The notes: generated by a model from the sequence alone, not told the origin. Positions 43,750 through 63,950 are shown, counted from the first letter of the stretch. The stretch: 64,000 nt of DNA from Acidimicrobiia bacterium (GCA_041586155.1 JBFHAT010000009.1:20826-84825); one strand, 5' to 3'. Program-made: numbers and translations.

Positions 43750-44562
43750 ATGTCGCAGCCGATCAGCTTTCTGTCCGACTTCGGTCACGATGACGAGTTC
43801 GTGGGTGTCGTGCATGGCGTGATTGCACGCATCGCCCCAGAGGTGGCCGTGATCGATGTCAATCACGGGGTGGCTCGCGGAAATGTCAGGGCGGGGGCGC
43901 TGTCGCTGATGCGGGCTATCCAGTATCTCCCGAACGGTGTAGCCCTCGCCGTCGTCGATCCGGGCGTCGGAACCGCCCGGCGTGCGGTTGCGGTGGAAAC
44001 CGACTGGGGTTACTTCGTCGGCCCCGACAACGGGCTCCTCGCACCGGCGGTGGCCCTCATCGGAGGAGCGGGTCGGGCTCATCTCATCGCCAACGAAGAG
44101 CTGGTCATCCCGAGCGCCGGCGCCACCTTCGATGGTCGGGACCGGTTCGGCCCGGCTGCAGCGGTGTTGGCTTCGGGTCAGGCCGGCATCGAGGACATCG
44201 GCCCGGCGGTCCCCGTCGGGTCGTTGACGCCGAGCATGCTGCCCTTGCCGGCGGTCGAGACGGAGCGGGTGTCGGGAGTGGCATGGTGGGTGGATCGTTT
44301 TGGCAACGTCCAGACCAACGTCGGTCCCGACGAGCTTGCCTCCCTCGGCATCGGAATCGGCACCGAAATGACGGTGCGGATCGGCCCTGCCGAGCACGTG
44401 CTGCCGCTTGTCGCCGCATTCGGCGATGTGGAACCAGGGGAGGGGATGGTCGTGATCGACTCGCAAGGCCTTGCTGCTCTGGCGGTTCGAGATGGTCGAG
44501 CCGACGAGAAGCTCCGTCTCGGCGAAGGGCGCTCGGTGGTGTTCGAACCGATACGTCGGTGA
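43750..44562 (+). CDS. SAM hydroxide adenosyltransferase family protein (DUF62; fluorinase/chlorinase-related)
   Basis: N-terminus ISFLSDFGHDDEFVGVVHGVI typical of DUF62. 270 aa. Confidence 0.6.
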   Translation: MSQPISFLSDFGHDDEFVGVVHGVIARIAPEVAVIDVNHGVARGNVRAGALSLMRAIQYLPNGVALAVVDPGVGTARRAVAVETDWGYFVGPDNGLLAPAVALIGGAGRAHLIANEELVIPSAGATFDGRDRFGPAAAVLASGQAGIEDIGPAVPVGSLTPSMLPLPAVETERVSGVAWWVDRFGNVQTNVGPDELASLGIGIGTEMTVRIGPAEHVLPLVAAFGDVEPGEGMVVIDSQGLAALAVRDGRADEKLRLGEGRSVVFEPIRR

Positions 44563-44567
44563 TGGCG

Positions 44568-44660
44568 TCAGGCGGACAACAGCTGGAAGAGGAACACCGC
44601 TCCGGCGATCGTCAACGCTCCCAGAAGGGCGATGAGCACGATGGTGGTCGCCGGCCGCAT
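44568..44660 (-). CDS. 30-aa single-helix membrane peptide MRPATTIVLIALLGALTIAGAVFLFQLLSA (below the ORF-track length cutoff)
   Basis: ATG-to-TGA minus-strand ORF found by translating the reverse complement by hand. It sits downstream of the cbb3-like operon, where a CcoQ-like small subunit could be expected. Confidence 0.3.
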   Translation of the reverse strand: MRPATTIVLIALLGALTIAGAVFLFQLLSA

Positions 44661-44864
44661 CGTTCGATTGTAGGAAGCACCCCCTGTGTGCTCTGCGGGC
44701 TGATGCGATTTTCCAAAAAGTCTCTAAAGACATTCCGGGCCGATGCCGATACGATGGAACAAGGCGAACTCATTGACATCGAACCTATGCCTTGGGCACG
44801 TTCAGTACCCATGGTGTATCGGAAGCCTCCCAGCCCGCCCCGATGTCAACTGGGAGAGCCTGTT

Positions 44865-44892
44865 GAAGGGCGGACCCTCGGGTCCGCCCTTC
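44865..44892. terminator. Perfect 12-bp-stem hairpin gaagggcggacc-ctcg-ggtccgcccttc, T-rich on the plus side
   Basis: Seen directly 30 nt downstream of the stop of the minus-strand cytochrome c gene. Confidence 0.45.
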
Positions 44893-44919
44893 TAGGTTTC
44901 TGAGGAGGATGCCCGCCGC

Positions 44920-46005
44920 TCACTCGTTCAGGGATGCCGCCGCGGCCGGTGCGGTGGTTTCGGTGGGGGTTGATCCGCCGGGGGCGGTCCCGTCCGGTGC
45001 CGTCCCATCGGGCGCAGTCCCATCAGGCGTGGTCCCATCTGGCGCCTCACCGGCCGCAAGGCCGCAATCGACGAGGGCCTCCTCGGCGCTGGCGCCACCA
45101 AACACGACCCGCTCGTAGAGGACGACCTGGGCGAGTTGATCCGCACTCAGGGCTTGACCGAAGCCGGGCATGTTCCCGAATCCCCCGGTGGGCTTGGCCG
45201 TGTCGCCGTACGTGGACCCGATCTGGGCGGTCCAACCGGCCGTACCCAACTCCACCCATGTGATGTGATCGCCACACCCGCTGAAGGTCGCGAGCACCGA
45301 GCCGCCGCTCAGCTGCGGTCCGGCTGCGCCTCCGGCGCCGTTCGGCATGTGGCATGAGGCGCAATTGGCTGCGTACACGTCGGCTCCGGCCGCCACGAGG
45401 TTCCCGCCCCCGCCGCCGCCTGGTCCGCCGGCGCCCTCGTAGGCGGTCAAATCACAGTTGACGAGCTCGTTGCGGAAGTTCACCGCCAGCTGACCTGCTT
45501 CGCCGCACTCGGGCCCCGCCGATCCGACAGTGATATAGCCCACGGCCATGATGGGGATGACGACGAAGAACGCCATGAGCCAGCTGGGCACGACCCCGTT
45601 CGTGCGCTCTTTGATGCCCACCGACGGGACCGTGGTGACCACTTCCCACTCCGCGGCCTCCTCCAATGAGACCGTCTCCGGTGGCGGCGGACCCTGAACC
45701 ACCTGAACACCGCCAGCGCCGGCGCCGGCCGCCGCCGGTACCGGGGCGGCCTCGGCAGGCGTGGGGGCAGCCTCGGTGGGGGCATCCTCGATGGTTGCCT
45801 CTTCGGCGGCGGCAGGAGCACTTTCCGCCGATTCCACGGCCGGGGCCGCTGCCGTTGCCGCAGGGGCGGCTCCACCTCCGGCCCATGCCTGCAGGATGTC
45901 ATCGACCGATCCGCCGGTGGCTGCGGCGCGGGCTTTCGCCGACCGCTCTACCAGCGACTCCGGTACGCCCAGTGTTGCTGCAGCCGCCGCCAGGGTCTCG
46001 CTCAT
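44920..46005 (-). CDS. Membrane-anchored monoheme class I cytochrome c with conserved N-terminal module and C-terminal (PDGTA)n tail
   Basis: Single CASCH. Central TM. N-terminus MSETLAAAAATLGVPESLVERSAKARAAATGGSVDDILQAW. Tail TPDGTAPDGTAPDGTAPGG. Confidence 0.7.
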   Translation of the reverse strand: MSETLAAAAATLGVPESLVERSAKARAAATGGSVDDILQAWAGGGAAPAATAAAPAVESAESAPAAAEEATIEDAPTEAAPTPAEAAPVPAAAGAGAGGVQVVQGPPPPETVSLEEAAEWEVVTTVPSVGIKERTNGVVPSWLMAFFVVIPIMAVGYITVGSAGPECGEAGQLAVNFRNELVNCDLTAYEGAGGPGGGGGGNLVAAGADVYAANCASCHMPNGAGGAAGPQLSGGSVLATFSGCGDHITWVELGTAGWTAQIGSTYGDTAKPTGGFGNMPGFGQALSADQLAQVVLYERVVFGGASAEEALVDCGLAAGEAPDGTTPDGTAPDGTAPDGTAPGGSTPTETTAPAAAASLNE

Positions 46006-46850
46006 TGCGACTCCACCAGGTATTGGACCAGGGCATCGAGGTCTTCGTCCGATAGGTATGCAACTGCCGGTTGCTGTGTGTCGGGATTCACGCTCGAGGG
46101 GTCGACGAGGAACGAACGCAGATAGGCCGGGTCGCTGGTCGGCTCACGGCTCCCGACGTGGGTGAGGTCGGGGCCGATTCGCTGGTGACCGAACGTGTCG
46201 CCCGCAAGCGCAGCAGACGTGCCCGGTTCGGTCACGGTGCCCAGGCCCACATCCGTGACAGCCGACCGCACCATCTGCGTATGGCAGTAGAAACAACCTT
46301 CCTGCACGTACACCTGACGGCCCCGTTCGGCGAGATCGGTGAGCACCGGGGTGGTGCCCGGCAGTTGGTCGGCTGCGACGCTTTGCGCATCCTGGGCGGG
46401 GAGCACGACCGCGACCAACACCCCCAGCAAGAACAGCAGCACGATACCGACGACGTAGAGCTCCGGCCTGTCGACTCTCCCGGTGAGCACCGGCGCGGCG
46501 CCGGCACGGCGGTCGACGACGACGACGCCGCCGGGGTTCGGCGGCACCTGAGCCGATTGTGTCGAGGCTGCAGCGGTGGTCGCCGGCGCGTCGGCAGGAG
46601 CCTGGGCGGGCTGGGCGGACTCGACGGCCGGAGCCGGAGTCTCGCTCGCCGCTGCGATCTCGGCTTGGGCAGCCGCTTCGACCTGCGGAGCTGCGGCGGC
46701 GCTCCCCGAAGGAGCGGAGCCTCCGGCTGCCCAGGCCGCCAAGATATCCTCTACTGGAACGCCGGCCGCCTGCGCCCGCGCCTTCGCCGACCTGAGCACC
46801 AGCTCCTCAGGTCCTCCCATTGCGGCAGCGGCGGCAGCGAGGTCGCTCAT
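46002..46850 (-). CDS. CcoO/FixO-like monoheme cytochrome c (cbb3 oxidase subunit II homologue) with N-terminal module
   Basis: ATG 46850 forms an ATGA overlap with the CcoN-like stop. YVQEGCFYCHTQMVR matches CcoO YVREGCYVCHSQMIR. N-terminus MSDLAAAAAAMGGPEELVLRSAKARAQAAGVPVEDILAAW. Confidence 0.7.
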   Translation of the reverse strand: MSDLAAAAAAMGGPEELVLRSAKARAQAAGVPVEDILAAWAAGGSAPSGSAAAAPQVEAAAQAEIAAASETPAPAVESAQPAQAPADAPATTAAASTQSAQVPPNPGGVVVVDRRAGAAPVLTGRVDRPELYVVGIVLLFLLGVLVAVVLPAQDAQSVAADQLPGTTPVLTDLAERGRQVYVQEGCFYCHTQMVRSAVTDVGLGTVTEPGTSAALAGDTFGHQRIGPDLTHVGSREPTSDPAYLRSFLVDPSSVNPDTQQPAVAYLSDEDLDALVQYLVESQ

Positions 46851-48262
46851 GCGGCCTCCACGAGCACCTCTTGAGGGGCTGCCGCCCCGCTGGTAACGGT
46901 CCTCCACAGGTTGAGCACCATGATGATCTGGGCGGTGGCGACCACCAGCACGGCCAACAGCGCGAGGATGCCCAATGTCCGTGTGGAAGAGAGGGTGTGA
47001 GCGAATCCCTCGCCGACGCTGGCGAAAGCACCGGTATACGCCCCGGCCAGCCAGGTGTAGCCCGCCGCCAGCCCGGCGAGCCATGTGAATATCGTCACGC
47101 CGCCGACGCCCCAGAACATGAGTTGCAGCTGGCGACGGCCGGCCGTCTCGGAGTAGAGCTGGCGGCCGAACGCCTGCGGCAGTGCGTAGTAGAGGAACGC
47201 GGCGGCCAGCATCGACGCAGCTCCGTACAGGAGCCCATAGCGCGTGCCGGTGGAAAACTGTGTGAGGCCCACAACGGAGGCGACAGACCGGAAGCCTTCG
47301 GCGCTGCTCACGAATGAGAGGAACACCAGCACCACCGCGCCCGCAACGGCAAACCTCAAATCGGAGCGCTCGCGCACCAGCGACCACTTGCCTTGCAGGG
47401 TGCCGATGAAGTTGGCGAGCACCGCCAGGCCGGGCACGATCATGCCCATGGTGAAGATGATGGCCACCGACTCGATCCAGTTGGCGGCAGGCCCGTAGAT
47501 CATCGCCGCCGGACCCGTCCAGACCTGTGCGAACGCCAGCGACCAAAAGCCGGCCAGGGCGAGTGGACGGCTGAAGAGCGGGTTGTCGGTGACACGGGGG
47601 ATGAGGTAGTAGGCGGCTCCGATACCGACTCCCACCGACCACAGACCGACCATCCCGACGGTATAGAACGAGGTGGTCAACGCCGAACCGACACCGCCGA
47701 TCCACGGGTTGGCCCCCACCGCCGTCAACCCGACCAGCCAGATCAGGCCACCGACCACGTACCAGACGGAGATGTAGATACTCTCCACCTTGCGTTTGGC
47801 GATCGTCCTCAGTGCCACCGTCAGTGGCACCAGGTAGAACACGAGCAGCGCAAGGTCGAACCCCCAGTGGAACTCGCCCAGGAGCCGACCCTGGTTCGGC
47901 GAAGCGCCGGATGCGGTCAGTACGAGCGCGAGGACGGTGACCACCGCACCGGCCGCACCTGCCAGGCGAGCCAGGCCTTCCCCCCACATCTCAGTTGCGG
48001 TCAGCCTCGGCAGCAAGAAGTAGGCGGCGGCGAGATTGGTGAACGTCAGGAACCCGAACACGAGGGAATTGGTCGCCAGCGGAGCGAGCCGACCATACGA
48101 GAACAGGGGACTCGCCGCGCCGAATGTCGGGAACGCTGCTTTCAGTGCGGCCAGCACACCGACCACGGCGGCAACGGCGAGGAATGCCAGGGCGATGAGC
48201 ATGTGGGTACGCGCGGCGGAATCGAACTCGGCCACTCGGGTCGGATGCGATGTGGCAGCCAA
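46847..48262 (-). CDS. CcoN-like heme-copper-oxidase subunit I homologue lacking all canonical His ligands
   Basis: 471 aa, 12 predicted TM. Segment-by-segment similarity to cbb3 CcoN: YGRLAPLATN vs GRLRPLHTN, TIAKRKVESIYISVWY vs TLAKRKVKHIYVGNWF, YYLIPRVTDNPLFSRPLALAGFW vs YYFVPK...YSYRLSIVHFW, WTGPAAMIYGP vs AGPHHLHY. Only 4 His in the protein, none at ligand positions. Start is TTG 48262 or ATG 48202. Confidence 0.65.
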   Translation of the reverse strand: MAATSHPTRVAEFDSAARTHMLIALAFLAVAAVVGVLAALKAAFPTFGAASPLFSYGRLAPLATNSLVFGFLTFTNLAAAYFLLPRLTATEMWGEGLARLAGAAGAVVTVLALVLTASGASPNQGRLLGEFHWGFDLALLVFYLVPLTVALRTIAKRKVESIYISVWYVVGGLIWLVGLTAVGANPWIGGVGSALTTSFYTVGMVGLWSVGVGIGAAYYLIPRVTDNPLFSRPLALAGFWSLAFAQVWTGPAAMIYGPAANWIESVAIIFTMGMIVPGLAVLANFIGTLQGKWSLVRERSDLRFAVAGAVVLVFLSFVSSAEGFRSVASVVGLTQFSTGTRYGLLYGAASMLAAAFLYYALPQAFGRQLYSETAGRRQLQLMFWGVGGVTIFTWLAGLAAGYTWLAGAYTGAFASVGEGFAHTLSSTRTLGILALLAVLVVATAQIIMVLNLWRTVTSGAAAPQEVLVEAA

Positions 48263-48542
48263 GCCGCGCTCCTGTCGTCCGTCGTTCCGCGCTGAGACGC
48301 GCGGCTCCAGCTCGCGCCCCCGCCTTCATCCTGGGTGCGCTGCGGTCGGCATCATACTGGCTCGATCGTCGCCGCCGTCGGTTGCATCGCTCGATCGGCA
48401 ACACCCACGCTGGCGATTCAGCGCTCACCCCCGATTGTGCTACTAATCTCCTGCACGTGGGGCCCGCTACGGCCGTGCCCCCTTGTGAGAGGCGGACGAG
48501 AACAGACAGTAGGGCCTCGCGGTCCCCGACGAATCTGAGAGC

Positions 48543-49184
48543 ATGAACCGACTGGCGCACCTCGACGAATCGAAACGAAGAATCGGCGGTCTTGCGTTAT
48601 TGGCCATGGGCATCGTCGCAGTGGCGTTCGGCGTCATCTGGGCGCATTTCGCGCTGTTCCCACAGACCGAGTTTGTCGACGGGGTAGAGATCCCGGTCGA
48701 GGTCGACACGTTCCTCGGAAACATTCCCCGGCACTGGCTCTCTGTCACCTTCGGCCAGATCGTCGCCACGGCCGGATCGCAGTTCATCGTCGCCGGAGCC
48801 CTCATGGCGTGGGTGATCGGCAAGACGATGACGTGGGCCAGGGCCGGCATTACAGCATTCATCGCGTGGTTCGAGCTGGTGCTCTACTTCGGCATCATTC
48901 CGTCCGAGTGGCTCAACCTGGCGCAAGGCCCCCTCGCCTGGACTTCACAGAAGCAGTTCGTGGTGATCCCCGAGTCGCTGTCGTGGATCGTCCTCAACAA
49001 CGAGGTGGCCGTGAGCATGGCCGCCCTGAAGGACGCCATCTCCGGGGGTTATCACATGGTGGCGTTGGGAGCTGCCATCCTGTTTGCCTACAAGATCCAG
49101 GACTTTGGCAAGCAAGACAAGGTGGCCACGCCCGAAGCCAAGCTGTCGCCGTACGGAAGGCCTCTCACGAAAGGCAGCCGCTGA
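48543..49184 (+). CDS. Hypothetical polytopic membrane protein, first gene of the bc-type operon
   Basis: 213 aa. Stop overlaps the ferredoxin start (TGATG). Confidence 0.5.
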   Translation: MNRLAHLDESKRRIGGLALLAMGIVAVAFGVIWAHFALFPQTEFVDGVEIPVEVDTFLGNIPRHWLSVTFGQIVATAGSQFIVAGALMAWVIGKTMTWARAGITAFIAWFELVLYFGIIPSEWLNLAQGPLAWTSQKQFVVIPESLSWIVLNNEVAVSMAALKDAISGGYHMVALGAAILFAYKIQDFGKQDKVATPEAKLSPYGRPLTKGSR

Positions 49185-49636
49185 TGGCCGGAGGACGAGA
49201 CGTCTGGTTCGAGACGCCCCCCATCCGCGACGACTATCAGCTGGCGGTGGTCGACGGCGATTACCTCAAAGCCCAGGTCAAGCCGAAGCAATTTCTCCAC
49301 ATCGACCAATCCGAGTGCATCCTCTGTGAAGGTTGCGTAGACATCTGCCCGTGGAAGTGCATCCACTACCTCTCGCTCGACGCAATCCATGAGGCCAAAG
49401 GCGTCGTCGACCCCAATTCCGACCCCGATGCCATGGGGTTCTTCCTCGTCGATGAGAACGAGTGCACCCGCTGTGCGCTGTGTATCGACCGCTGTCCGAC
49501 GGGCGTGATCACCCTCGGCAAGTTCGAAGGGTCGTTGTCGGATGAAGCGGCGCAGGCCGATCTGATCGCGCCCTGGGACATCGACACCGGCCAGCGCGAC
49601 TACAAGAACGGGTACGTCTACGGATTGCGGATGTAG
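49184..49636 (+). CDS. 2x[4Fe-4S] ferredoxin-domain protein
   Basis: [12 protein letters not shown] and [12 protein letters not shown]. About 150 aa. ATG 49184. Confidence 0.7.
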
Positions 49637-49650
49637 AGGCGGAGGAACAG

Positions 49651-50439
49651 TTGGCCAACGGAAACGACAACACCACATTGCTGGAGCGAGCCAAGGGGCT
49701 CGCCACCGAAACGTGGGAACGCCTTCATGGCAGCCAGGTGATGGAGTCGATTCTCCGGCCTGGCTCGCCTTTCAAGAAGGGCTACTCCGACTCACCTCGC
49801 AACCGTTCCTACGTGGTCATGAACAACGTGCTGTATCACCTCCACCCGGTGAAGGTGAAACGCCATGGCGTCCGCCTTTCCTACACACTGTGTCTGGGTG
49901 GATTGAGCTTCTTCCTTTTCATCCTCCTGACGATCACGGGCATCTTCTTGATGTTCTATTACGCCCCCACCGCCGAGGCGGCGTACGCCGATGTGCAGGA
50001 GCTCTCGACCTCGGTTGCATTCGGCTCGCTGGTCCGCAACATGCACCGATGGGGAGCTCACTTCATGGTGCTCACGGTGTTCCTCCACATGTCGCGGGTC
50101 TTCTACCACGGCGCCTACAAGCCACCACGCGAGTTCAACTGGGTCGTCGGAGTCATCTTGTTGCTGCTGACGCTGCTGCTTTCGTTCACCGGTTACCTGC
50201 TGCCGTGGGATCAGCTGGCGCTGTGGGCTGTGACCGTTGGCACCAACATGGCCGGGTTCGTGCCTGTCTTCGGCGAACAGGTCAAGTTCGTCCTGTTGGG
50301 CTCGTTGGAGGTGTCCGCCGACACCATCCTCAGGTGGTACGTTGGCCACGTGCTGTTCTTGCCGTTCATCATTGTGATCTTCATGGCCGTTCACTTTTGG
50401 AGGGTGCGCAAGGACGGCGGCATCTCGGGGCCCCTGTAG
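49651..50439 (+). CDS. Cytochrome b6-type (split cytochrome b N-terminal, 4-helix, dihaem) subunit
   Basis: His pairs in [18 protein letters not shown] and [25 protein letters not shown]. 262 aa. Confidence 0.8.
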
Positions 50440-50448
50440 GAGACTGAG

Positions 50449-51432
50449 ATGGCTGAGATTCCCGAACATCTACTTCGCAGATCGGCCGAAGCCAAGGCCA
50501 AAGCTCTGGGCCTGCCGGTCGAGCAGGTGCTTGCCGAGATGAAAGGCGAAGCGCCGCCCACCCCGACAACCGAGCCCTCGGTTGCGGAGGCGTCGGCTCA
50601 GGCTGCGCCGGTTGCGGAGGCGTCGGCTCAGGCTGCGGATGCGCCAGTTGCGGAAGCGTCGGCTCAGGCTGCGGATGCGCCGGTTGTCGAGCCGGTGGCC
50701 GACACGGCAGCGGAGCCCGCCGCCCCGGCGGCTGTGGAGCAAGCGGTGCCCGCACCGGTGGCTACCGCCGTCACCGAACCTGCACCCGAACTTCCCGCAG
50801 GTGATGTGGAGCCGCCTTCGGGCAACGGTGGGCCAGCCGGCAACGGAGGCCGGGTCGCCACGTCCGTATCGCCCCGTCCGGTGGCTCCCGCGGAGAGCGG
50901 GCCGGAAGGCGTCCGGACCCAGCGACTGCTGACCGTCGTCAAGGCCAAAGCGATCCAGCAGGTCAAGGCCGAGCCCACCGACAAGGTCAGCACCTGGCCT
51001 CATCTGATGATCGCCGAATTCGCCTCGCTCCTGGCGGTGACTGCGGTACTGCTCGTGCTTTCGGTGATTCTGCAGGCGCCGCTCCTCGAGGCGGCCAACT
51101 TCAACGCCACGCCCAACCCCTCCAAGGCACCCTGGTATTTCCTCGGTCTGCAGGAGCTGCTGTCGTACTTCGATCCGCAGATCGCCGGTGTCACCGTGCC
51201 GACCATCGTCGGGTTGATCGGATTCATGGCGATTCCGTACGTCGACCGAAACCCGTCCATCAAGCCCTCCGATCGCAAGTTCGCCATCTTCATGTACACC
51301 TTCTTCTTCATGGGCTCGAGCGTCTTGACGATCCTCGGTGTGCTCTTCCGGGGCCCCGGCTTCAACTTCACCTACCCGTGGGCCGACGGGATCTTCTTCG
51401 ACGACCTCAAAGACTGGGTGAACTTCGAATGA
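50449..51432 (+). CDS. Cytochrome bc subunit IV (PetD / cytochrome b C-terminal domain) homologue with N-terminal module and (VAEASAQAADAP)x3 linker
   Basis: ANFNATPNPSKAPWYFLGLQELL matches the PetD PEWY region. N-terminus MAEIPEHLLRRSAEAKAKALGLPVEQVLAEM. Confidence 0.7.
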   Translation: MAEIPEHLLRRSAEAKAKALGLPVEQVLAEMKGEAPPTPTTEPSVAEASAQAAPVAEASAQAADAPVAEASAQAADAPVVEPVADTAAEPAAPAAVEQAVPAPVATAVTEPAPELPAGDVEPPSGNGGPAGNGGRVATSVSPRPVAPAESGPEGVRTQRLLTVVKAKAIQQVKAEPTDKVSTWPHLMIAEFASLLAVTAVLLVLSVILQAPLLEAANFNATPNPSKAPWYFLGLQELLSYFDPQIAGVTVPTIVGLIGFMAIPYVDRNPSIKPSDRKFAIFMYTFFFMGSSVLTILGVLFRGPGFNFTYPWADGIFFDDLKDWVNFE

Positions 51433-52328
51433 CCACGAACCAGCTGATCTTCGTCGTGATTGCCGCAGTCCTGCTGTTCGCAGCGCTGGCTGCGTTCGGC
51501 ATTGCCTTCCGCCAGTCGAAACGAGACGATGAATGGCGTCGAAATCTCGAAGAGGACGCCCGCCGCAGTGACGCCGGCGTACCAGCAGGGGTGATTGCGG
51601 CCACGCGAGCATCCGCCGGAGCCGCCGACGCATCGGCCGAGGCATTGGCAGTGGAAGCGCCGGATGTCGAGGAGCCGGTCGAAGCGGTTCCCGCGTATCA
51701 GACCGTAGAAGCGCAGCGCGTCCTCGAGGTCAGCCCCGAAGAGGCGGGCATACTTCGGCGCCAGTTCCTCAACCGGGCGATGGCCGGCACGTTCTTCTCG
51801 GTGTTGGGGATCTTCGGCCTGGCCAGCTTTGGCTTCATGTGGCCCCGCGTGAAGGGCGGGTTCGGCGCCGACATCGACGCCGGGGATGCGGATGAGATTC
51901 GTAACGCTGTCTTCAACGCCGACGGCTCGGTGACACCGTTGTTCTGGCCGGAAGCAAAGTCGTGGATCGTGCCCATCTCCGACTCGCAAGAGGCAGGGTC
52001 GCAGTTCTCGGACAACGCGACGGTGGCGGGGGGCCTCGCGGCCCTATGGCAGAAGTGCGTTCACCTCGGTTGCCGGGTGCCGTGGTGTCAGACCTCGCAG
52101 GGTTTCGAGTGTCCGTGCCACGGCTCGAAGTACAACGTCCTCGGGGAGTACGAGGCCGGACCGGCGCCGCGCAACCTCGACCGGTTCGTGGTCGAGATCG
52201 ACGAGAGCAATAGGTTCATCGTTCGCACCAGCCAGGTGATCCCCACCGAACGTGCTCCGGCCAAGAACGCCCGGTACCCGCTGGGACCGAGCTGCATCAC
52301 GATCAGCGCGACCCAAGAGGAAGCCTGA
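51429..52328 (+). CDS. Rieske [2Fe-2S] iron-sulfur subunit
   Basis: ATG 51429 (ATGA overlap). N-terminal TM. CVHLGC ... CPCHGS boxes. Confidence 0.85.
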   Translation: MTTNQLIFVVIAAVLLFAALAAFGIAFRQSKRDDEWRRNLEEDARRSDAGVPAGVIAATRASAGAADASAEALAVEAPDVEEPVEAVPAYQTVEAQRVLEVSPEEAGILRRQFLNRAMAGTFFSVLGIFGLASFGFMWPRVKGGFGADIDAGDADEIRNAVFNADGSVTPLFWPEAKSWIVPISDSQEAGSQFSDNATVAGGLAALWQKCVHLGCRVPWCQTSQGFECPCHGSKYNVLGEYEAGPAPRNLDRFVVEIDESNRFIVRTSQVIPTERAPAKNARYPLGPSCITISATQEEA

Positions 52329-52332
52329 CCAG

Positions 52333-53754
52333 GTGAGCAGCATCGTCATCGTCATCGTGGCGTTGGGCGCCCTCGGCTGGCTCGCCGTGCTCGTTGCATC
52401 GGGACTGCGCGGCCGCAACAAGGACGAGGTTCCTCCCAACCTCGATCCGTTCAAAACGGACGCCGAGTTGGAAGGTCGGCGCCTCGACCGTGTCATGTCG
52501 GTGGCGGTGATCTTGTCAGGGTTGCTGGCGATCTCTCTGCCGGTGTATTGGCTGGGCGAGATCGGGCGCCAGGAGGGCTTCGAAGAGCAATTCCACGAGG
52601 AGTCGGTCGAGCGCGGCCACGAGCATGTCGAAGAGTTCCAATGTGGCGCATGCCATGGTGCCGCTCTCGACGGGGGCGTGGCCGGGTTCGTGGACAAGCG
52701 CAGCGGGGTGGCCGTGTCGTGGGCGGCTCCGGCGCTCAACGACATCTTCTACCGCTACGACGAGGATGAGGTTCGCTTCTGGATCGTCTACGGGCGTCCG
52801 GGGAGCCCGATGCCTCCTTGGGGCCTCGACGGTGGTGGGCCCATGAACGAACAGCAGGTCCAAGAAGTCATCGATTACCTGAAGACGGTCCAGATCCCTC
52901 AGGCCGAGGCGGTGGCGGCAGTCGACACTCGCGTCGACCTGGCGCTGAGCAGCCTCGACGGCGCCGATGCCAGCGTGGACGCCCAGATCGCATCGCAACA
53001 AGAGCTGATCGCCGAGATCGAAGCAGCTCCCGGCCAGCTGGCGGCGTTGCGCCCCCTCGCCGAAGCCGCTGCGGCCATTCTCGCCGGCGCATCCGGGGTG
53101 GACGTCGACGAGGACGGTGTCACCGACCGAGTCGAGGCCGAGCTCTCCGCAGTTTCCGAAGACGCAGCCGCCATCGTCGCCGACCTGGCCCCGATCGTGC
53201 TCGACCCTCGAAACCCGGCTACGTCACCCGACGGGACGTCTGACCTGCGGGCCGCCGAGACATACGTCGCTGCGCTCGAGTCGGAGGTGTCGGCTCTGCA
53301 GCTCACGGTCGACCGCCAAGACGACCTGCTGGCCACCGCTGAGGAGGGCCTCGAGTTTCTCCAACAGGCGGGTGAGCAACGCAAGTACGCCGTCGATTTC
53401 CAGTCGGTGGCCGATGCCACGTTCGGCGGTGACGTCGACCAGGCACGAAGGGCCGTTGGCGTGTATCAGGCCTACTGTGCCCGCTGCCACACGTCAGGGT
53501 ATTCGGAAGGCCCGGCCTTCACGCAGGAGGTCGGATCGGGAGCCCTGGGACCTGCCCTGTGGGAGGGTCGAGCCAACGTTCAATTCCTCGATGCGGAATC
53601 GATGAAGAATTTCATCGCCAACGGCTCGGAGCTGGGAGTCGGGTACGGAGTGAATGGTGTCGGGCGCGGGTACATGCCCGGATTCGGACAGGTCCTGCCC
53701 GAAGAGGACCTCGACCTGCTCATCCAGTACTTGCGAGGGGAGGTGCTTCGCTGA
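52333..53754 (+). CDS. Membrane-anchored dihaem cytochrome c (cytochrome c1-equivalent) with long Ala/Asp-rich insert
   Basis: GTG 52333. CGACHG and CARCHT. 473 aa. Confidence 0.75.
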   Translation: MSSIVIVIVALGALGWLAVLVASGLRGRNKDEVPPNLDPFKTDAELEGRRLDRVMSVAVILSGLLAISLPVYWLGEIGRQEGFEEQFHEESVERGHEHVEEFQCGACHGAALDGGVAGFVDKRSGVAVSWAAPALNDIFYRYDEDEVRFWIVYGRPGSPMPPWGLDGGGPMNEQQVQEVIDYLKTVQIPQAEAVAAVDTRVDLALSSLDGADASVDAQIASQQELIAEIEAAPGQLAALRPLAEAAAAILAGASGVDVDEDGVTDRVEAELSAVSEDAAAIVADLAPIVLDPRNPATSPDGTSDLRAAETYVAALESEVSALQLTVDRQDDLLATAEEGLEFLQQAGEQRKYAVDFQSVADATFGGDVDQARRAVGVYQAYCARCHTSGYSEGPAFTQEVGSGALGPALWEGRANVQFLDAESMKNFIANGSELGVGYGVNGVGRGYMPGFGQVLPEEDLDLLIQYLRGEVLR

Positions 53755-54116
53755 TGCGTGAGCTGATGCGAGACATCCTGTCTCAGAATCTGTTGTTCAC
53801 GGGGATCTTCCTGTTCGTGGTGTCGATGCTGACGTTCTTCGGCACCGGCTACCTCATCACCGCCACCAACCTGGGCAAACGGCTCGCGTTCCTCGTGACG
53901 GGCGCCGGGATCTTCGGCTGGGGGGTTCTGAACTCTCTGCTGTTCGTGCTCTATGCGCCTCGCGGACCGAGGCCCGAGAACTTCGAGGGGCTGAACGCCT
54001 TCGAGATTCGGATCCTCCCGCTCACGTTCATGCTGGCATCCGCCATCCTGTTCGCCATGTTCCTGGTCGCCCTCAACCGCTACGAAGCCGACCAGAACCG
54101 TCAGCTCGAGTCCTGA
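53754..54116 (+). CDS. Small 3-TM membrane protein, last gene of the bc-type operon
   Basis: ATG 53754 overlaps the cytochrome c stop. 120 aa. Confidence 0.5.
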   Translation: MRELMRDILSQNLLFTGIFLFVVSMLTFFGTGYLITATNLGKRLAFLVTGAGIFGWGVLNSLLFVLYAPRGPRPENFEGLNAFEIRILPLTFMLASAILFAMFLVALNRYEADQNRQLES

Positions 54117-54155
54117 CGATTCCCTGCATCTCGGGAGCGGCGCTATCGTGCGCTT

Positions 54156-54785
54156 GTGAAAAAGGGCACAATCCCGAAAGCGACGGTGGCCCGGCTGCCG
54201 ATGTACCTCCAGTGCCTCGAATCGCTCCCTGACTCGGCCACCACCGTCTCCTCCGAAGCGCTGGCTGAGATCGCGGCAGTGACTTCCGCCAAGGTCCGCA
54301 AAGACCTGTCCTGTCTCGGCTCGAATGGGGTGCGTGGTGTGGGCTACGACAAAGAGCAGCTCTGCGTCCTCATCCGCCGTGAGCTCGGTCTGACGCAGGA
54401 TTGGCCCGTCGTCATCGTCGGGGCGGGAAATCTGGGCACGGCGCTGGCCAACTACGGGGGATTTGCCACCTCCGGCTACCGGATCGTGGCGATCTACGAC
54501 GCCGACCCCGACAAGATCGGCACCTTCGTCGACGGCCTGGCCATCCGCCCCGTCGACACCCTCGACGCCGACATCACAGCGGAAAAAGTCGCGATCGGCA
54601 TCATCACCACCCCGGTCGGAGCCGCGCAAGAAACGGCGAGTCGCTTGGCGGCGGCAGGGGTCCGGTCCATCCTCAACTTCGCACCCGTCGTGGTTCGTGT
54701 TCCATCCTCGGTGCAGGTTCGTCACGTCGACCTTGCCACCGAGCTCCAGATCCTCAGCTACTACTCGCTGCGGTCGGCAGGCTGA
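54156..54785 (+). CDS. rex: Redox-sensing transcriptional repressor Rex
   Basis: N-terminal wHTH (PKATVARLPMYLQCL), Rossmann VVIVGAGNLGTALANY. 209 aa. Confidence 0.85.
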   Translation: MKKGTIPKATVARLPMYLQCLESLPDSATTVSSEALAEIAAVTSAKVRKDLSCLGSNGVRGVGYDKEQLCVLIRRELGLTQDWPVVIVGAGNLGTALANYGGFATSGYRIVAIYDADPDKIGTFVDGLAIRPVDTLDADITAEKVAIGIITTPVGAAQETASRLAAAGVRSILNFAPVVVRVPSSVQVRHVDLATELQILSYYSLRSAG

Positions 54786-54800
54786 GCCGAGCGGTAACGT

Positions 54801-56048
54801 GTGGCGATGAGCGACTACGACGTGGTAGTGGTCGGAGGCGGCCCGGCCGGAGCGGCTGCCGCATACTGGCTGGCCCGGGGGGGCCGGTCCGTGCTGATGG
54901 CGGAGAAGTCCCGTTACCCGCGAGAGAAGACATGCGGTGACGGACTGACCCCGCGCTCCATCTACGAGCTGAGTCAGATGGGCTTCGACTTCTCGGCGGG
55001 GGAGTTTCACCAGATCGTCGGGCTACGCTCGTATGCGGGCGAGACCCTGCATCTGGAGATGCCGTGGCCGGACCACTCCCGGTACCCGAACTGGGGTGGG
55101 GTCATCCGCCGCCTGGACTTGGATCAGGCCGTCGCCCGCCTCGCCGAGAAAGAAGGGGCGGTGATACGGCAAGGCGTCACCGCAGTACCGCACGTCGTCG
55201 ACGGCCGGCTCGCCGGGATCGAGATGACGAATGGCGAAGACTCCGATGTGATCACGTCGACAGTGGTGGTCATCGCCGATGGATCGACCAGCCGATTCGG
55301 GCGTGCCCTCGGCACCGTCCGCGACAAGGACTATCCGCTCGGCCTCGCGGCCCGCGGCTACTACTCATCGCCACGATCGACCGACGCGTTCATGGAGAGT
55401 CAACTCGACATCCGTGACGAGCGGGGCGCGTCGATGCCCGGGTACGGCTGGGTGTTTCCGCTGGGCGACGGGACCGTCAACGTGGGCGTTGGCCTGCTTT
55501 CCACCTTCCGGCATTGGAAGGAGGTCAACACCACCAAGATGATGGGCGATTACGTCCGCTCGGCGCCCCGACATTGGGACCTGTCAGAAGCGCGCAAGCT
55601 GTCGGAGCCCCGCGGCGGCAAGCTATTGATGAGCTTCTCCAAAGGACCACGCGTTGGCCCGAACTGGGTGACCGTCGGCGATGCCATGGGAGCCATCAAC
55701 CCCTGGAACGGCGAGGGCATCGCATACGGCTACGAGACCGGACGGATGGCGGCAGAGCACATCGCGGCCGCGCTCGACGCCGACGACCTCGGACTGCTCC
55801 ACCGGTACGCCGACCACCTCGACGAGGTATATGGCGACTATTACCGGATGGCGCGAGTCTTCGTGAAGGCCATCGGGTACCCATGGGTGATGCGAACCCT
55901 CGCTCATACGGGCCTGCATTCCAAGCCGCTCATGGAATGGGTGCTCAAGGTCATGGCCAACCTCCTCGAGGAGGAGGATCGGGGAGTGGGCAGGCGTGCC
56001 TATGACCTCCTCGAGGGTCTGGTTCGGGTAGCGCCGCTCCGCGTCTGA
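54801..56048 (+). CDS. Geranylgeranyl-reductase-family FAD oxidoreductase (MenJ-like menaquinone/prenyl reductase)
   Basis: YDVVVVGGGPAGAAAAYWLA FAD fold. CGDGLTPRS. 415 aa. Confidence 0.7.
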   Translation: MAMSDYDVVVVGGGPAGAAAAYWLARGGRSVLMAEKSRYPREKTCGDGLTPRSIYELSQMGFDFSAGEFHQIVGLRSYAGETLHLEMPWPDHSRYPNWGGVIRRLDLDQAVARLAEKEGAVIRQGVTAVPHVVDGRLAGIEMTNGEDSDVITSTVVVIADGSTSRFGRALGTVRDKDYPLGLAARGYYSSPRSTDAFMESQLDIRDERGASMPGYGWVFPLGDGTVNVGVGLLSTFRHWKEVNTTKMMGDYVRSAPRHWDLSEARKLSEPRGGKLLMSFSKGPRVGPNWVTVGDAMGAINPWNGEGIAYGYETGRMAAEHIAAALDADDLGLLHRYADHLDEVYGDYYRMARVFVKAIGYPWVMRTLAHTGLHSKPLMEWVLKVMANLLEEEDRGVGRRAYDLLEGLVRVAPLRV

Positions 56049-61053: not shown

Positions 61054-61137
61054 TCCTCCCATCTCGGCCGACGGCGGCCGTTTTGGTTGTTCGTCTTTTA
61101 CGTTCCTAATCTGGCGGCCGAGTAGAGAGGATTACGG

Positions 61138-61575
61138 GTGGACCTGCCGGCGTACCTGCCGATCGCGATCATGTTCCTCTTGGCGCTGGGCTTCGTCGTT
61201 GCGGCGCTCTCGATTTCGTGGCTGGTTTCGCCCAAGAAACCAACTCCGGAGAAGCTCGCGCCGTACGAATGCGGGATCGTCCCAGAGGTGGATCCCAACC
61301 ACCGGTTTCCGATCCAGTTCTATCTGATCGCCATGCTCTTCGTCATCTTCGACGTCGAGATCATCTTCCTCTTTGCCTGGGCAGTGCTCTTTCCCGACCC
61401 GTCGTTCGGCTGGAAAGGCGTGCTCGAAATCGCCATTTTCACGGGCCTGATCGCCGGCACGCTTCTCTACGTATGGGGGAGGGGTGCGCTCGACTGGAAC
61501 GTGCCGCTACGCGAGCGCCGAATCCAGCAGAGCATCGAACCCGAGGCGCCGTCTGTCCCTCAAGAGGCGGCCTGA
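61138..61575 (+). CDS. nuoA: NADH-quinone oxidoreductase subunit A
   Basis: GTG 61138 after RBS gagagg. KLAPYECG motif. Confidence 0.85.
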
Positions 61576-62048
61576 TGGCACAGCCCGAGCGGGTGCCAGG
61601 AGTGCTGACGGCATCGATCGGCAAAGTGGCGCGCTGGGCGCAGACACGCTCGATGTTTCCGGCCACGTTCGGTCTCGCATGCTGTGCCATCGAGATGATG
61701 GCAACCGGCACCGCCCACTACGACCTGGCTCGGTTCGGTATGGAGGTGTTTCGCGCCTCGCCCCGCCAGGCCGACCTGATGATCGTGGCGGGGCGAGTCT
61801 CCCAGAAGATGGCTCCGGTTCTCCGCCAGGTGTACGACCAGATGCCCGAACCCAAATGGGTCATCTCGATGGGCGCTTGTGCTTCCACGGGCGGGATGTT
61901 CAACAACTATGCGCTCGTGCAGGGCGTCGATCAGATCGTGCCGGTCGACATCTACGTACCCGGCTGCCCGCCGGGCCCGCAGTCGTTGATGCACGGCATC
62001 CTCACCCTCCACGACAAGATCATGAGCGGAGAACTGGCCCGTGTCTGA
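61575..62048 (+). CDS. nuoB: NADH-quinone oxidoreductase subunit B
   Basis: ATG 61575 overlaps the nuoA stop. [10 protein letters not shown] and GACASTGG Fe-S cluster N2 motifs. Confidence 0.9.
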
Positions 62049-62595
62049 CCCGATCGAGCCCACCGAAGCGGTCGACGACGATGCGTCGGACGTCGCCGCC
62101 GAAGCGAGCCAGGTCCTCCCCGAGGTGCCGCTCATGGCCGAGCTGGCGGCCGGGTTTCCGGAATCGGTATGGGGCACCGCCGTAGGACAGACGATCGTCG
62201 AGCTCCCGGCCGCACAACTGCGCGCCTTTGGCGAAGCAGCCCGCGCTGCCGGATTCGAGATGCTGGCCGACCTCACCGCGGTCGACTACCTGGGGCACCG
62301 GCGCACCCGATTCGAAGTCGTCGCCAACTTCCTCAGCGTGGAGCACGGCCTTCGTATCCGGGTCCGTTGTCCGCTCCCGGCCGACGACCCCACGATTCCG
62401 TCGTTGGTGCCGGTGTACCCGGGCGCCAACTTCTTCGAGCGCGAGGTGTACGACATGTTCGGCATCACGTTTGAAGGGCATCCCGACCTCACCCGCATCC
62501 TGATGCCCGACGACTGGCAGGGTCACCCCCTGCGCAAAGACTTCGGCGTCGGCGACGTTCCCGTGCAATTCAAAGCAGCCAACAAGGTGACCTGA
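62041..62595 (+). CDS. nuoC: NADH-quinone oxidoreductase subunit C
   Basis: GTG 62041. [14 protein letters not shown] motif. Confidence 0.85.
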
Positions 62596-63950
62596 TGACG
62601 GACATGAAAGACCGCCGCAGCGCCGATGTCTGGCTGACCGGCACCGAAGAACCCGATCCCGAATGGATGATCCGAGGCACCGCCGAGGGCAGCCAGCTGA
62701 TGCGCCCCGAGGAGACGGCCGAGCGGCTCACCGAACAGCTCGGGACCCGAGTCGTCGACGACGTGCTCTACGAAGAGCAGATCGAGGACGACCGCATGAT
62801 CATCAACATGGGCCCTCAGCATCCCTCCACCCACGGCGTGTTGCGGCTGCACATGGAGCTCGAAGGCGAGATGGTGCGCCGCGTCAAGCCCATCATCGGT
62901 TATCTCCACACCGGTATGGAGAAGACCGCGGAGACCCTCACCTACCTGCAGGGCCCCACCAACGTGACCCGGATGGACTACCTCGCTCCGTTCCACAACG
63001 AGTTGTGTTTCTCGCTGGCGGTCGAGCGGCTGCTCGCAATCGAAATCCCGCCCCGCGCAGATGCGATCCGCGTCCTGCTCACCGAGCTGAACCGTGTGTC
63101 CAGTCATCTGGTTGCACTCGCCACCAACGGCATGGATGTCGGGGCACTGTCGATGATGCTCTACGGGTTTCGGGAGCGAGAAATGATCCTCGAATTCTTC
63201 GAGAAGACCACCGGTCTCCGTATGAACCACAACTTCATCCGCCCCGGTGGCGTCGCCGCCGACCTTCCCCCCGGAGGGGAAGACGACGTCGCCGAGATCC
63301 TCGACACGATGCCGTCCAAGCTGCAGGACTACGACGACCTGCTCAAAGCCAACCCCATATGGCTGCGCCGAACCCGTGACATCGGGGTGATCAGCGCGGA
63401 GGAGTGCCTCGCCTACTCGATCACCGGCCCCACCCTCCGCTCCACCGGGTTCGCCCACGACCTGCGCAAGACCGAGCCTTACTCCGGCATCGACAACTAC
63501 GAGTTCGACGTGGCCGTCGGTGAGCGAGGCGACGCCTACGACCGCTACCGGGTGAAGGTCAACGAGATCGAACAGTCGTTGCGCATCGTCCGTCAGGTCG
63601 CCGAAGCCATGCCTTCAGGCGACTACAAGACCGAAGACCGCAAAGTCGTCCCCCCGCCCCGCAAACGCATCGACGAGTCGATGGAAGCGCTCATCCACCA
63701 CTTCAAGATCTACACCGAGGGATTCAAAGTGCCCGAGGGGGAGACCTATGTGGCGGTCGAATCACCCCGCGGTGAGCTGGGCTGCTATTTGGTATCCGAC
63801 GGAGGCAGCAAACCGCTACGCATGCACACCCGGGCGCCGTCATTCGCCAACCTCCAGGCGATTCCCATCCTCCTCGCCGACTCGCTCGTCGCTGACACGA
63901 TCGCCTCCCTCGCCAGCCTCGATCCCGTGATGGGGGACGTCGACCGATGA
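62595..63950 (+). CDS. nuoD: NADH-quinone oxidoreductase subunit D
   Basis: ATG 62595 overlaps the nuoC stop. MIINMGPQHPSTHGVLRL motif. 451 aa. Confidence 0.9.
   Translation: MTDMKDRRSADVWLTGTEEPDPEWMIRGTAEGSQLMRPEETAERLTEQLGTRVVDDVLYEEQIEDDRMIINMGPQHPSTHGVLRLHMELEGEMVRRVKPIIGYLHTGMEKTAETLTYLQGPTNVTRMDYLAPFHNELCFSLAVERLLAIEIPPRADAIRVLLTELNRVSSHLVALATNGMDVGALSMMLYGFREREMILEFFEKTTGLRMNHNFIRPGGVAADLPPGGEDDVAEILDTMPSKLQDYDDLLKANPIWLRRTRDIGVISAEECLAYSITGPTLRSTGFAHDLRKTEPYSGIDNYEFDVAVGERGDAYDRYRVKVNEIEQSLRIVRQVAEAMPSGDYKTEDRKVVPPPRKRIDESMEALIHHFKIYTEGFKVPEGETYVAVESPRGELGCYLVSDGGSKPLRMHTRAPSFANLQAIPILLADSLVADTIASLASLDPVMGDVDR

Follow-up and report, generated by a model that had tools for sequence, protein, structure and literature searches.

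What can a cytochrome cbb3 oxidase operon be for, when its subunit I carries none of the residues that hold haem and copper? The question is raised by a 64,000-nucleotide stretch of DNA from an Acidimicrobiia bacterium (GCA_041586155.1, JBFHAT010000009.1:20826-84825), referred to here as the window and numbered from its first letter. The window has a G+C content of about 65%, and the nearest relatives of its genes are found in metagenome-assembled genomes of Acidimicrobiia. On its minus strand lie genes for a homologue of the cbb3 subunit I, CcoN, without haem or copper ligands (psCcoN), for a CcoO-like monohaem cytochrome c and, at the position of CcoP, for a membrane-anchored monohaem cytochrome c. 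Divergent from psCcoN and 280 nt away, a complete seven-gene operon for a b6-type Rieske/cytochrome b (bc) complex occupies positions 48543-54116 of the plus strand. Our reading, to which we assign a probability of roughly 0.55, is that the three genes represent a non-catalytic module that would derive from a bc-cbb3 supercomplex and would have been kept within the bc complex, for structure or as an electron relay.

The three cbb3-like genes

An earlier note on this DNA had described four chained minus-strand genes mimicking the order ccoN-ccoO-(Q)-P. Three of the genes are indeed chained: the psCcoN/CcoO-like and CcoO-like/cytochrome c junctions are both ATGA stop/start overlaps, at 46847-46850 and 46002-46005, as the note had read them, and the second of these leaves no space for a gene between the O and P positions. 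The fourth, an open reading frame (ORF) of 30 codons, lies 259 nt away behind a hairpin and does not belong to the chain. Comparison of synteny in relatives, proposed in the note as a check, showed that the three-gene arrangement is kept in more than 20 related loci, which rules out a chance arrangement.

Family matches, together with the fold described below, also agree with the note on a cbb3-derived origin of the three genes. psCcoN scored 133 bits against Pfam COX1 and 154 bits against the NCBIfam model TIGR00780 for ccoN (cut-off 583); the CcoO-like protein scored 63.6 bits against FixO and 72 bits against TIGR00781 for ccoO (cut-off 201); the cytochrome c gene product scored 35.8 bits against Cytochrome_CBB3 and 32 bits against TIGR00782 for ccoP (cut-off 180), and matched FixP_N only at E=0.015. 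Neither the cbb3 assembly genes FixS and FixG nor other oxidase genes were found among about 40 window ORFs compared with Pfam.

Loss of ligands and retention of the fold in psCcoN

The ligand positions of psCcoN were read from a HMMER alignment to Pseudomonas stutzeri CcoN (3MK7, chain A). All six histidines are replaced: the haem b ligands H60 and H347 correspond to A63 and Y342, the haem b3 ligand H345 to T340, and the CuB ligands H207, H257 and H258 to V202, A252 and A253. The cross-linked active-site tyrosine, Y251 in P. stutzeri, is Q246. psCcoN has only four histidines (6, 20, 132 and 422), none of them in the ligand-carrying transmembrane (TM) helices TM2, TM6, TM7 and TM10, and the same loss was found in 11 of the 11 closest homologues. 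Three alignments of ligand-less sequences, with 12, 63 and 78 members, contained no column of conserved His, Met, Cys or Lys. With the haem b, haem b3 and CuB sites lost, psCcoN is predicted to be unable to reduce O2 or NO. The statement of the earlier note that the catalytic subunit cannot bind metals is thus borne out, and the role other than O2 reduction that it had proposed seems a sensible conclusion, given the loss of the ligands.

An AlphaFold2 model of psCcoN, computed with the 63-sequence alignment, had a predicted local distance difference test score (pLDDT) of 94.2 and a predicted template-modelling score (pTM) of 0.93. Foldseek superposed the model on 3MK7 CcoN with a TM-score of 0.88 and a root-mean-square deviation of 2.6-2.8 A, at 23% sequence identity, and the model fits the CcoN chains of bc1-cbb3 supercomplex entries as well as those of free cbb3. 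We conclude that the full 12-helix haem-copper oxidase (HCO) fold is, as modelled, retained in psCcoN. The residues conserved across the family (G57, R58, Y218, W240, W262 and T334) also agree with those aligned to them in P. stutzeri CcoN.

The ratio of non-synonymous to synonymous substitution rates (dN/dS) of psCcoN was 0.04-0.06 in close pairs and 0.18-0.24 in distant pairs. The corresponding values were 0.11-0.14 and up to 0.20 for the CcoO-like protein, and 0.10-0.19 for the cytochrome c, with distant pairs similar, so that psCcoN is the most constrained of the three proteins in close pairs. Judged by these ratios, psCcoN is under purifying selection and is not decaying. The loss of ligands, the strong selection and the adjacency to Rieske and cytochrome b6 genes, taken together, suggest that psCcoN is most likely a non-catalytic subunit of the complex encoded next to it.

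A family of ligand-less subunits I

A profile search of 1.84 billion cluster representatives (50% identity) returned 311 proteins at E <= 1e-30, and ligand patterns were classed for the best 150. Among these 150, 73 had no histidine at any of the six ligand sites, and sequences with the canonical pattern HHYHHHH appeared only from about 280 bits downwards. Fusions of a ligand-less CcoN to a CcoO domain, 613-753 residues long and with one CxxCH, accounted for 29 of the 73 ligand-less representatives. A second, word-indexed homologue search with the 78-sequence alignment added almost nothing new. In a neighbour-joining tree, which is too crude for counting ligand-loss events, the canonical sequences formed one cluster and the ligand-less sequences fell into several deep groups. 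The ligand-less family is apparently actinobacterial and centred on Acidimicrobiia; the fused forms are placed in Actinomycetota only because they share neighbours with the others, namely Rex, the S-adenosylmethionine (SAM) hydrolase with its peptide gene, the MenJ-like reductase and nuo. Neither Pfam nor NCBIfam holds a family-specific model for ligand-less CcoN, and all name-giving sources (NCBI, JGI) call these proteins cbb3 oxidase subunit I.

Partly degenerate CcoN homologues were also seen (P0055, P0060, P0062, P0083, P0090, P0127, P0128, P0140, P0145 and others), with patterns such as HHYHHHL, HHYHHHM, HHSHHHH, HHYHHAL and HHGLPQM. These sequences suggest a stepwise or repeated erosion of the ligands within the C-family.

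Could the module still be a terminal reductase, with its cofactors on non-canonical ligands? The fully retained fold speaks for this, as does the tolerance of altered active sites in other HCO families, such as gNOR with Asp in place of one His (PMC11214002). However, the six ligands were lost together and the cross-linked Tyr with them, the replacements are mostly small or non-ligating residues that differ between clades, and no other conserved column of potential ligands has appeared. In addition, gNOR was described as the first HCO with one active-site His replaced, complete conservation of these histidines being stated for the remaining HCO families (Murali et al., 2024; PMC11214002). We therefore regard a cryptic reductase as very improbable. 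Even less probable, and already contradicted, is the view that the genes are a decaying, functionless remnant of an oxidase operon. It would account for the loss of the catalytic residues and of the distal Met of CcoO (see below), but the uninterrupted, translationally coupled reading frames and a dN/dS of 0.04-0.24 speak against it, as do the high-confidence structure prediction and the presence of the genes in dozens of loci and many deep clades, gene fusions included.

Linkage to bc genes in related loci

Related loci were taken from a genome scan (3) and a metagenome scan (80), with the others from looked-up contigs, and were classed by ligand pattern into 33 ligand-less and 54 canonical loci; linkage was counted for those ligand-less loci with at least 700 nt of upstream flank. 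A divergent bc operon was found beside the ligand-less CcoN in 23 of the 26 loci with sufficient flank. It also adjoins two fused forms (L088 and L089) and a short form (L090), which were looked up independently; the linkage spans deep clades. The earlier note had passed over this context, which is decisive here, as well as the shared domain and the altered distal ligand described below. In L090, cytochrome c maturation (ccm) genes stand between psCcoN and the bc genes. A distant ligand-less CcoN, P0152 (pattern ANANQLT), is encoded in L004 (7298-13807 of a 789-kb contig) in the order cytochrome c, 375-residue membrane protein, 259-residue protein, psCcoN, FixO, cytochrome c and COX2; this COX2 has an intact CuA-type motif, and no COX1 is encoded nearby.

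Canonical relatives of psCcoN are linked to bc genes in a different way. All 31 canonical loci with enough flank, from a sample biased by its recovery with peptide patterns of the pseudo-family, consist of one co-directional operon for Rieske protein, cytochrome b, a 597-residue four-domain cytochrome c, CcoN, CcoO and, further on, FixG. Only P0047 controls for this bias: it is the best-scoring canonical CcoN of the unbiased profile search, and it is 89% identical to the CcoNs of two Rieske-cytochrome b-CcoN-CcoO loci. In L026 (3831-14549), and in about 50 loci like it that come from metagenomes of peat, soil and lakes, the canonical cbb3 genes share one operon with the bc genes, in the order FixS-like, Rieske, unsplit cytochrome b, 597-residue four-domain cytochrome c with a FixO-like part, CcoN, CcoO, Fe-S flavoprotein, DsbD-like and FixG; L026 has both FixS and FixG. 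Distant co-directional loci had been considered as additional members of the pseudo-family; they were rejected when a check of their ligands identified them as canonical cbb3.

An N-terminal domain common to both operons

The cbb3-like and bc operons of the window also have a protein domain in common. A domain of about 40 residues (G.P..LV.RSA.ARA...G..V..iL..WAG) opens the CcoO-like protein, the cytochrome c and, in the bc operon, subunit IV, and is followed in each by an Ala/Pro-rich linker and then by the first membrane helix. With a hidden Markov model (HMM) built from the three window copies, the domain was detected in 32 related loci, with 1-3 copies per protein; there was no other match in the window and none in canonical cbb3 loci. 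In some orthologues of subunit IV or of the cytochrome c, two or three copies stand in tandem (L002, L014, L039, L088 and L089). Pfam has no family that matches the domain, and the L089 copy had no significant match among PDB sequences. From the topology generally known for CcoO and PetD, the domain should be cytoplasmic, and the cytoplasmic ferredoxin subunit is a candidate for what it binds. From the gene linkage and the shared domain we infer a physical association of the cbb3-like and bc modules.

The c-type partners and the role of psCcoN

As the earlier note had stated, both c-type partners keep a CxxCH motif and the third gene encodes a monohaem, not a dihaem, cytochrome. The CcoO-like protein consists of the N-terminal cytoplasmic domain, the Ala/Pro linker, a TM anchor and a haem domain with CFYCH, and the motifs EGCxxCHTQ and GPDL are retained. 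Where canonical CcoO has its distal Met (GSIMPP), the window protein has a Gln (TQQPA) and no Met after it in the domain, and another residue may serve as the distal ligand; in relatives the position is Q, H or M, and the fused clade has the motif WSxMP. The cytochrome c has a membrane anchor and a class-I domain with a single CASCH and a Met in NMPGFG. CxxCH is kept in the CcoO-like protein of all complete ligand-less loci examined except L090, and in 29 of 29 fusions. In L090 (9001-10982), the partner encoded downstream of a short, 458-residue psCcoN has a cytoplasmic region, an Ala/Pro linker and one TM helix, and no CxxCH.

Taken together, the fold, the ligand loss, the constraint, the recurrent fusion to CcoO, the adjacency to bc genes, the shared domain and the bc-linked canonical relatives fit best with the relic of a supercomplex. 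The ancestor would have been a bc-cbb3 supercomplex, in which psCcoN lost haem b, haem b3 and CuB and hence the reduction of O2 or NO. psCcoN would have been kept as a folded 12-helix scaffold, partnering the CcoO-like protein and the cytochrome c at the CcoP position, both presumably membrane-anchored with their haem domains outside the cell. The cbb3-like module and the b6-type complex would most probably form one supercomplex, in which the two c-haems may carry electrons onward from the bc complex, to an acceptor whose gene lies elsewhere. In which direction and to which partner the electrons pass, and that psCcoN acts as a scaffold, is what we infer from the genes.

Several observations weigh against this proposal. 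The variable distal ligand of the CcoO-like protein (Q, H or M) argues against a finely tuned electron wire, and a dihaem cytochrome c is already encoded in the bc operon, which leaves no obvious need for a further c-type relay. The L090 partner, without any haem motif, indicates that the role of psCcoN may be independent of c-haems. Finally, the ligand-less clade of L004 is not beside bc genes, and the canonical bc-linked sample carries the bias mentioned above.

Some of these points feed the main rival explanation, that psCcoN was reused without electron transfer, either as an assembly or stabilising factor of the b6-type complex or as an ion- or proton-conducting or other transport subunit, its c-type partners being dispensable. 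In favour of such a role, the L090 partner has kept its cytoplasmic region and TM anchor in spite of lacking CxxCH, the distal ligand of the CcoO-like protein differs even between close relatives, and close-pair dN/dS is lower for psCcoN (0.04-0.06) than for the haem partners (0.10-0.19). Yet apart from L090 every complete ligand-less locus examined has CxxCH in its CcoO-like protein, as do all 29 fusions, no conserved motif of polar or charged residues within the membrane was identified that would speak for a channel, and the six family-conserved residues of psCcoN match those of P. stutzeri CcoN. We consider the rival unlikely, if a serious one, and prefer the relic of a supercomplex with a structural or electron-relay role.

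The region downstream of the cbb3-like genes

Between the cytochrome c gene and the 30-codon ORF lies a GC hairpin followed by an invariant non-coding core (Table 1). The folding energy of the hairpin is -29.2 kcal/mol on the minus strand and -34.2 kcal/mol on the plus strand (z about -5.5 to -5.7), and it is present in 10 of 10 related loci, in which the sequences differ yet pair. Hairpin and core form a unit (44789-44892), of which 10 related loci have one copy each; the unit may face either way with respect to the genes that flank it. An Rfam scan of 44300-45100 gave no match to the core and only chance-level matches on the hairpin, and RNAalifold detected no covariation of the core on either strand. 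A coding function of the core was rejected, as its indels are not multiples of three. Possibly, the unit could be a small RNA on the plus strand of the window, with a C-rich, anti-Shine-Dalgarno-like stretch and then the hairpin as its terminator.

The 30-codon ORF had no Pfam or NCBIfam match. It is 90% identical to the copy in L001, with about 12 synonymous and 3 non-synonymous differences, and by this pattern of substitution it is a real, conserved and coding gene. Homologues starting MRPxT were found in 11 loci, each of them tail-to-tail with, and a few bases from, the 3' end of a SAM-hydrolase gene; this holds across loci of Acidimicrobiia type and suggests a functional or regulatory pairing of the two genes.

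In the earlier note, the peptide had been taken for a possible CcoQ-like subunit that completes a four-gene ccoN-O-(Q)-P-like operon. It is a conserved single-helix product encoded on the same strand 259 nt downstream, and cbb3 and b6f complexes often have small subunits with one helix. However, what the peptide gene adjoins in every case is the 3' end of the SAM-hydrolase gene, whatever the orientation, and it does not follow the cbb3-like genes: in L002 and L012 it and they are encoded on opposite strands, and in L089 a distance of 8 kb, with the bc operon in between, separates it from them. It also lies outside the O-P interval, unlike ccoQ, and is separated from the cytochrome c gene by the strong hairpin and the conserved non-coding element. 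The synteny with the SAM-hydrolase gene and the gap with its hairpin and non-coding element lead us to conclude that the peptide is not a CcoQ-like member of the operon; we hold the four-gene alternative to be improbable.

The divergent bc operon and its surroundings

The genes of the bc operon are listed in Table 1. The 213-residue membrane protein encoded first had no Pfam or NCBIfam match. The cytochrome b6 has a Cys in the motif YTLCLGG, which we take to correspond to Cys35 of b6f, the residue that binds haem ci. This Cys, the match to ExtP and the gene for a soluble 2x[4Fe-4S] ferredoxin directly upstream are hints of an actinobacterial complex of the b6f/b6c type, with a ferredoxin as its partner on the n-side.

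Scans of 44300-48700 for sigma-70 and terminator consensus sequences were uninformative, with no sigma-70 consensus in the divergent intergenic region, and there was no match to the Rex operator consensus anywhere in the window. Genes for a Rex repressor, a MenJ-like geranylgeranyl/menaquinone reductase and nuoA/C/D stand beside the bc operon (54117-56048 and 61126-63950). Since these neighbours recur in L005, L088, L089 and L090, the region appears to be a conserved respiratory gene island. The window has no tRNA genes.

Table 1. Features of the cbb3-like and bc operons and of the adjoining region (window coordinates unless a locus is named).
Feature	Coordinates	Strand	Evidence or remark
SAM hydroxide adenosyltransferase (SAM hydrolase)	43750-44562	+	Pfam SAM_HAT_N, SAM_HAT_C; convergent with 30-codon ORF
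30-residue single-helix peptide gene (MRPATT...)	44568-44660	-	259 nt downstream of cytochrome c gene
Invariant non-coding core, GGGGCGGGCTGGGAGGC...CACCTTGG...TGAACGTGCCC	44789-44848		always with the hairpin, 25-35 nt past it
12-bp GC hairpin	44865-44892		starts 28 nt after cytochrome c stop codon
Hairpin/core unit in related loci	L001 13631-13797; L002 13497-13612; L005 13288-13354		also in L012, L019, L020, L021, L025, L028
Membrane-anchored monohaem class-I cytochrome c, 361 aa, CcoP position	44920-46005	-	CASCH, NMPGFG
Shared N-terminal domain, cytochrome c copy	45862-46005	-	HMM 89.4 bits
CcoO-like monohaem cytochrome c, 282 aa (counted from ATG)	46002-46850	-	ORF, FixO, CFYCH
Shared N-terminal domain, CcoO-like copy	46710-46850	-	HMM 87.7 bits
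psCcoN, CcoN homologue without haem or copper ligands, 471 aa	46847-48262	-	TTG start, AGGAG upstream
Divergent intergenic region, pseudo-cbb3 operon/bc operon	48263-48542		read directly
213-aa membrane protein, first bc-operon gene	48543-49184	+	same position in related loci
2x[4Fe-4S] ferredoxin-like subunit	49184-49636	+	Pfam Fer4 families; position conserved in relatives
Cytochrome b6	49651-50439	+	Pfam Cytochrome_B 158 bits; NCBIfam ExtP 305 bits, above 290 cut-off
Subunit IV (C-terminal half of cytochrome b), N-terminal extension	50449-51432	+	Cytochrom_B_C; ExtQ-like
Shared N-terminal domain, subunit IV copy	50458-50556	+	HMM 58.0 bits
Rieske [2Fe-2S] protein, intact CVHLGC...CPCHGS	51429-52328	+	Pfam Rieske; NCBIfam b6f iron-sulfur subunit 66 bits
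Membrane-anchored dihaem cytochrome c (CGACH, CARCH)	52252-53754	+	two cytochrome c domains
Three-helix membrane protein, about 120 aa, last bc-operon gene	53754-54116	+	ORF; 120-aa gene at same place in L005

Discussion

On the evidence of its sequences, the cbb3-like module is systematically mis-annotated as an oxidase. Since annotation pipelines name psCcoN and its relatives "cbb3-type cytochrome c oxidase subunit I", metagenomic counts of cbb3 may credit Acidimicrobiia and their relatives with a high-affinity oxygen respiration for which genes without the ligands are predicted to be of no use. The HCO superfamily is defined by its metal ligands, and a large family under selection without all six of them shows a use of the scaffold beyond catalysis. 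Its tight and ancient linkage to a b6-type Rieske/cytochrome b complex that includes a ferredoxin subunit suggests a novel architecture of complex III, and makes the family a testable case of how III-IV supercomplexes evolve after the loss of the oxidase. Full-text literature searches, partial in coverage, returned no description of a ligand-less CcoN, so that an earlier description is possible. In its most general form, our proposal is that a family of ligand-less HCO subunits I, unfused or fused to CcoO, is integral to an undescribed b6-type Rieske/cytochrome b/ferredoxin complex and would be the first pseudo-enzyme member of the HCOs, the fossil of a supercomplex; for this wider claim we put the odds slightly below even.

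The closest known system is the cbb3 oxidase itself (ccoNOQP; P. stutzeri, 3MK7 and 5DJQ), with which the module shares a 12-helix subunit I, the order N, O and membrane-anchored cytochrome c, the EGCxxCHTQ and GPDL motifs of CcoO and translational coupling. In contrast to that enzyme, the window psCcoN lacks the six His ligands and the cross-linked Tyr, the three proteins score far under the ccoN, ccoO and ccoP equivalog cut-offs of NCBIfam, and the third subunit has a single haem motif instead of two. The module lacks ccoQ, ccoGHIS genes are absent from its vicinity, the distal Met of CcoO is replaced, and the CcoO-like protein and the cytochrome c carry an extra cytoplasmic N-terminal domain.

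Variant HCOs (qNOR, NOD, eNOR, sNOR and gNOR; PMC11214002) belong to the same superfamily and have likewise lost O2 reduction. They keep both haems and the metal site, however, whereas the family described here replaces all six histidines. The "N2O red" HCO family (Murali et al., 2024) was considered and rejected: it is related to cNOR and treated as a catalytic reductase, and no loss of haem or metal ligands is reported for it.

The pairing of a Rieske/cytochrome b complex with a module of CcoN, CcoO and CcoP type resembles the bc1-cbb3 supercomplexes of Rhodobacter capsulatus (6XKW) and Pseudomonas aeruginosa (8SMR and 9G83). In those supercomplexes cbb3 is an active O2 reductase, whereas its equivalent in the window appears to be cofactor-less, and would associate with the bc complex on the grounds of gene linkage and the shared domain. 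The bcc-aa3 supercomplex of Actinobacteria (QcrCAB-CtaCDEF; Corynebacterium glutamicum, 7Q21, and Mycobacterium smegmatis) comes from the same phylum, has a dihaem cytochrome c in its bc operon and sets a precedent for an obligate III-IV supercomplex without soluble cytochrome c. Its haem-copper partner, however, is an active A-family oxidase and its cytochrome b is unsplit, whereas the bc complex of the window, with b6, subunit IV and a ferredoxin subunit, is more like b6f or the b6c of Firmicutes.

Relic pseudo-enzyme subunits are known from other respiratory complexes: NuoB and NuoD of complex I, which derive from [NiFe]-hydrogenase, and the core proteins of mitochondrial complex III, which derive from the mitochondrial processing peptidase (MPP). 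Their structural role has been demonstrated experimentally, whereas that of psCcoN is a proposed one. Like them, psCcoN would once have been a catalytic subunit and, its metal or active site gone, would be kept for its structure in a larger energy-converting complex.

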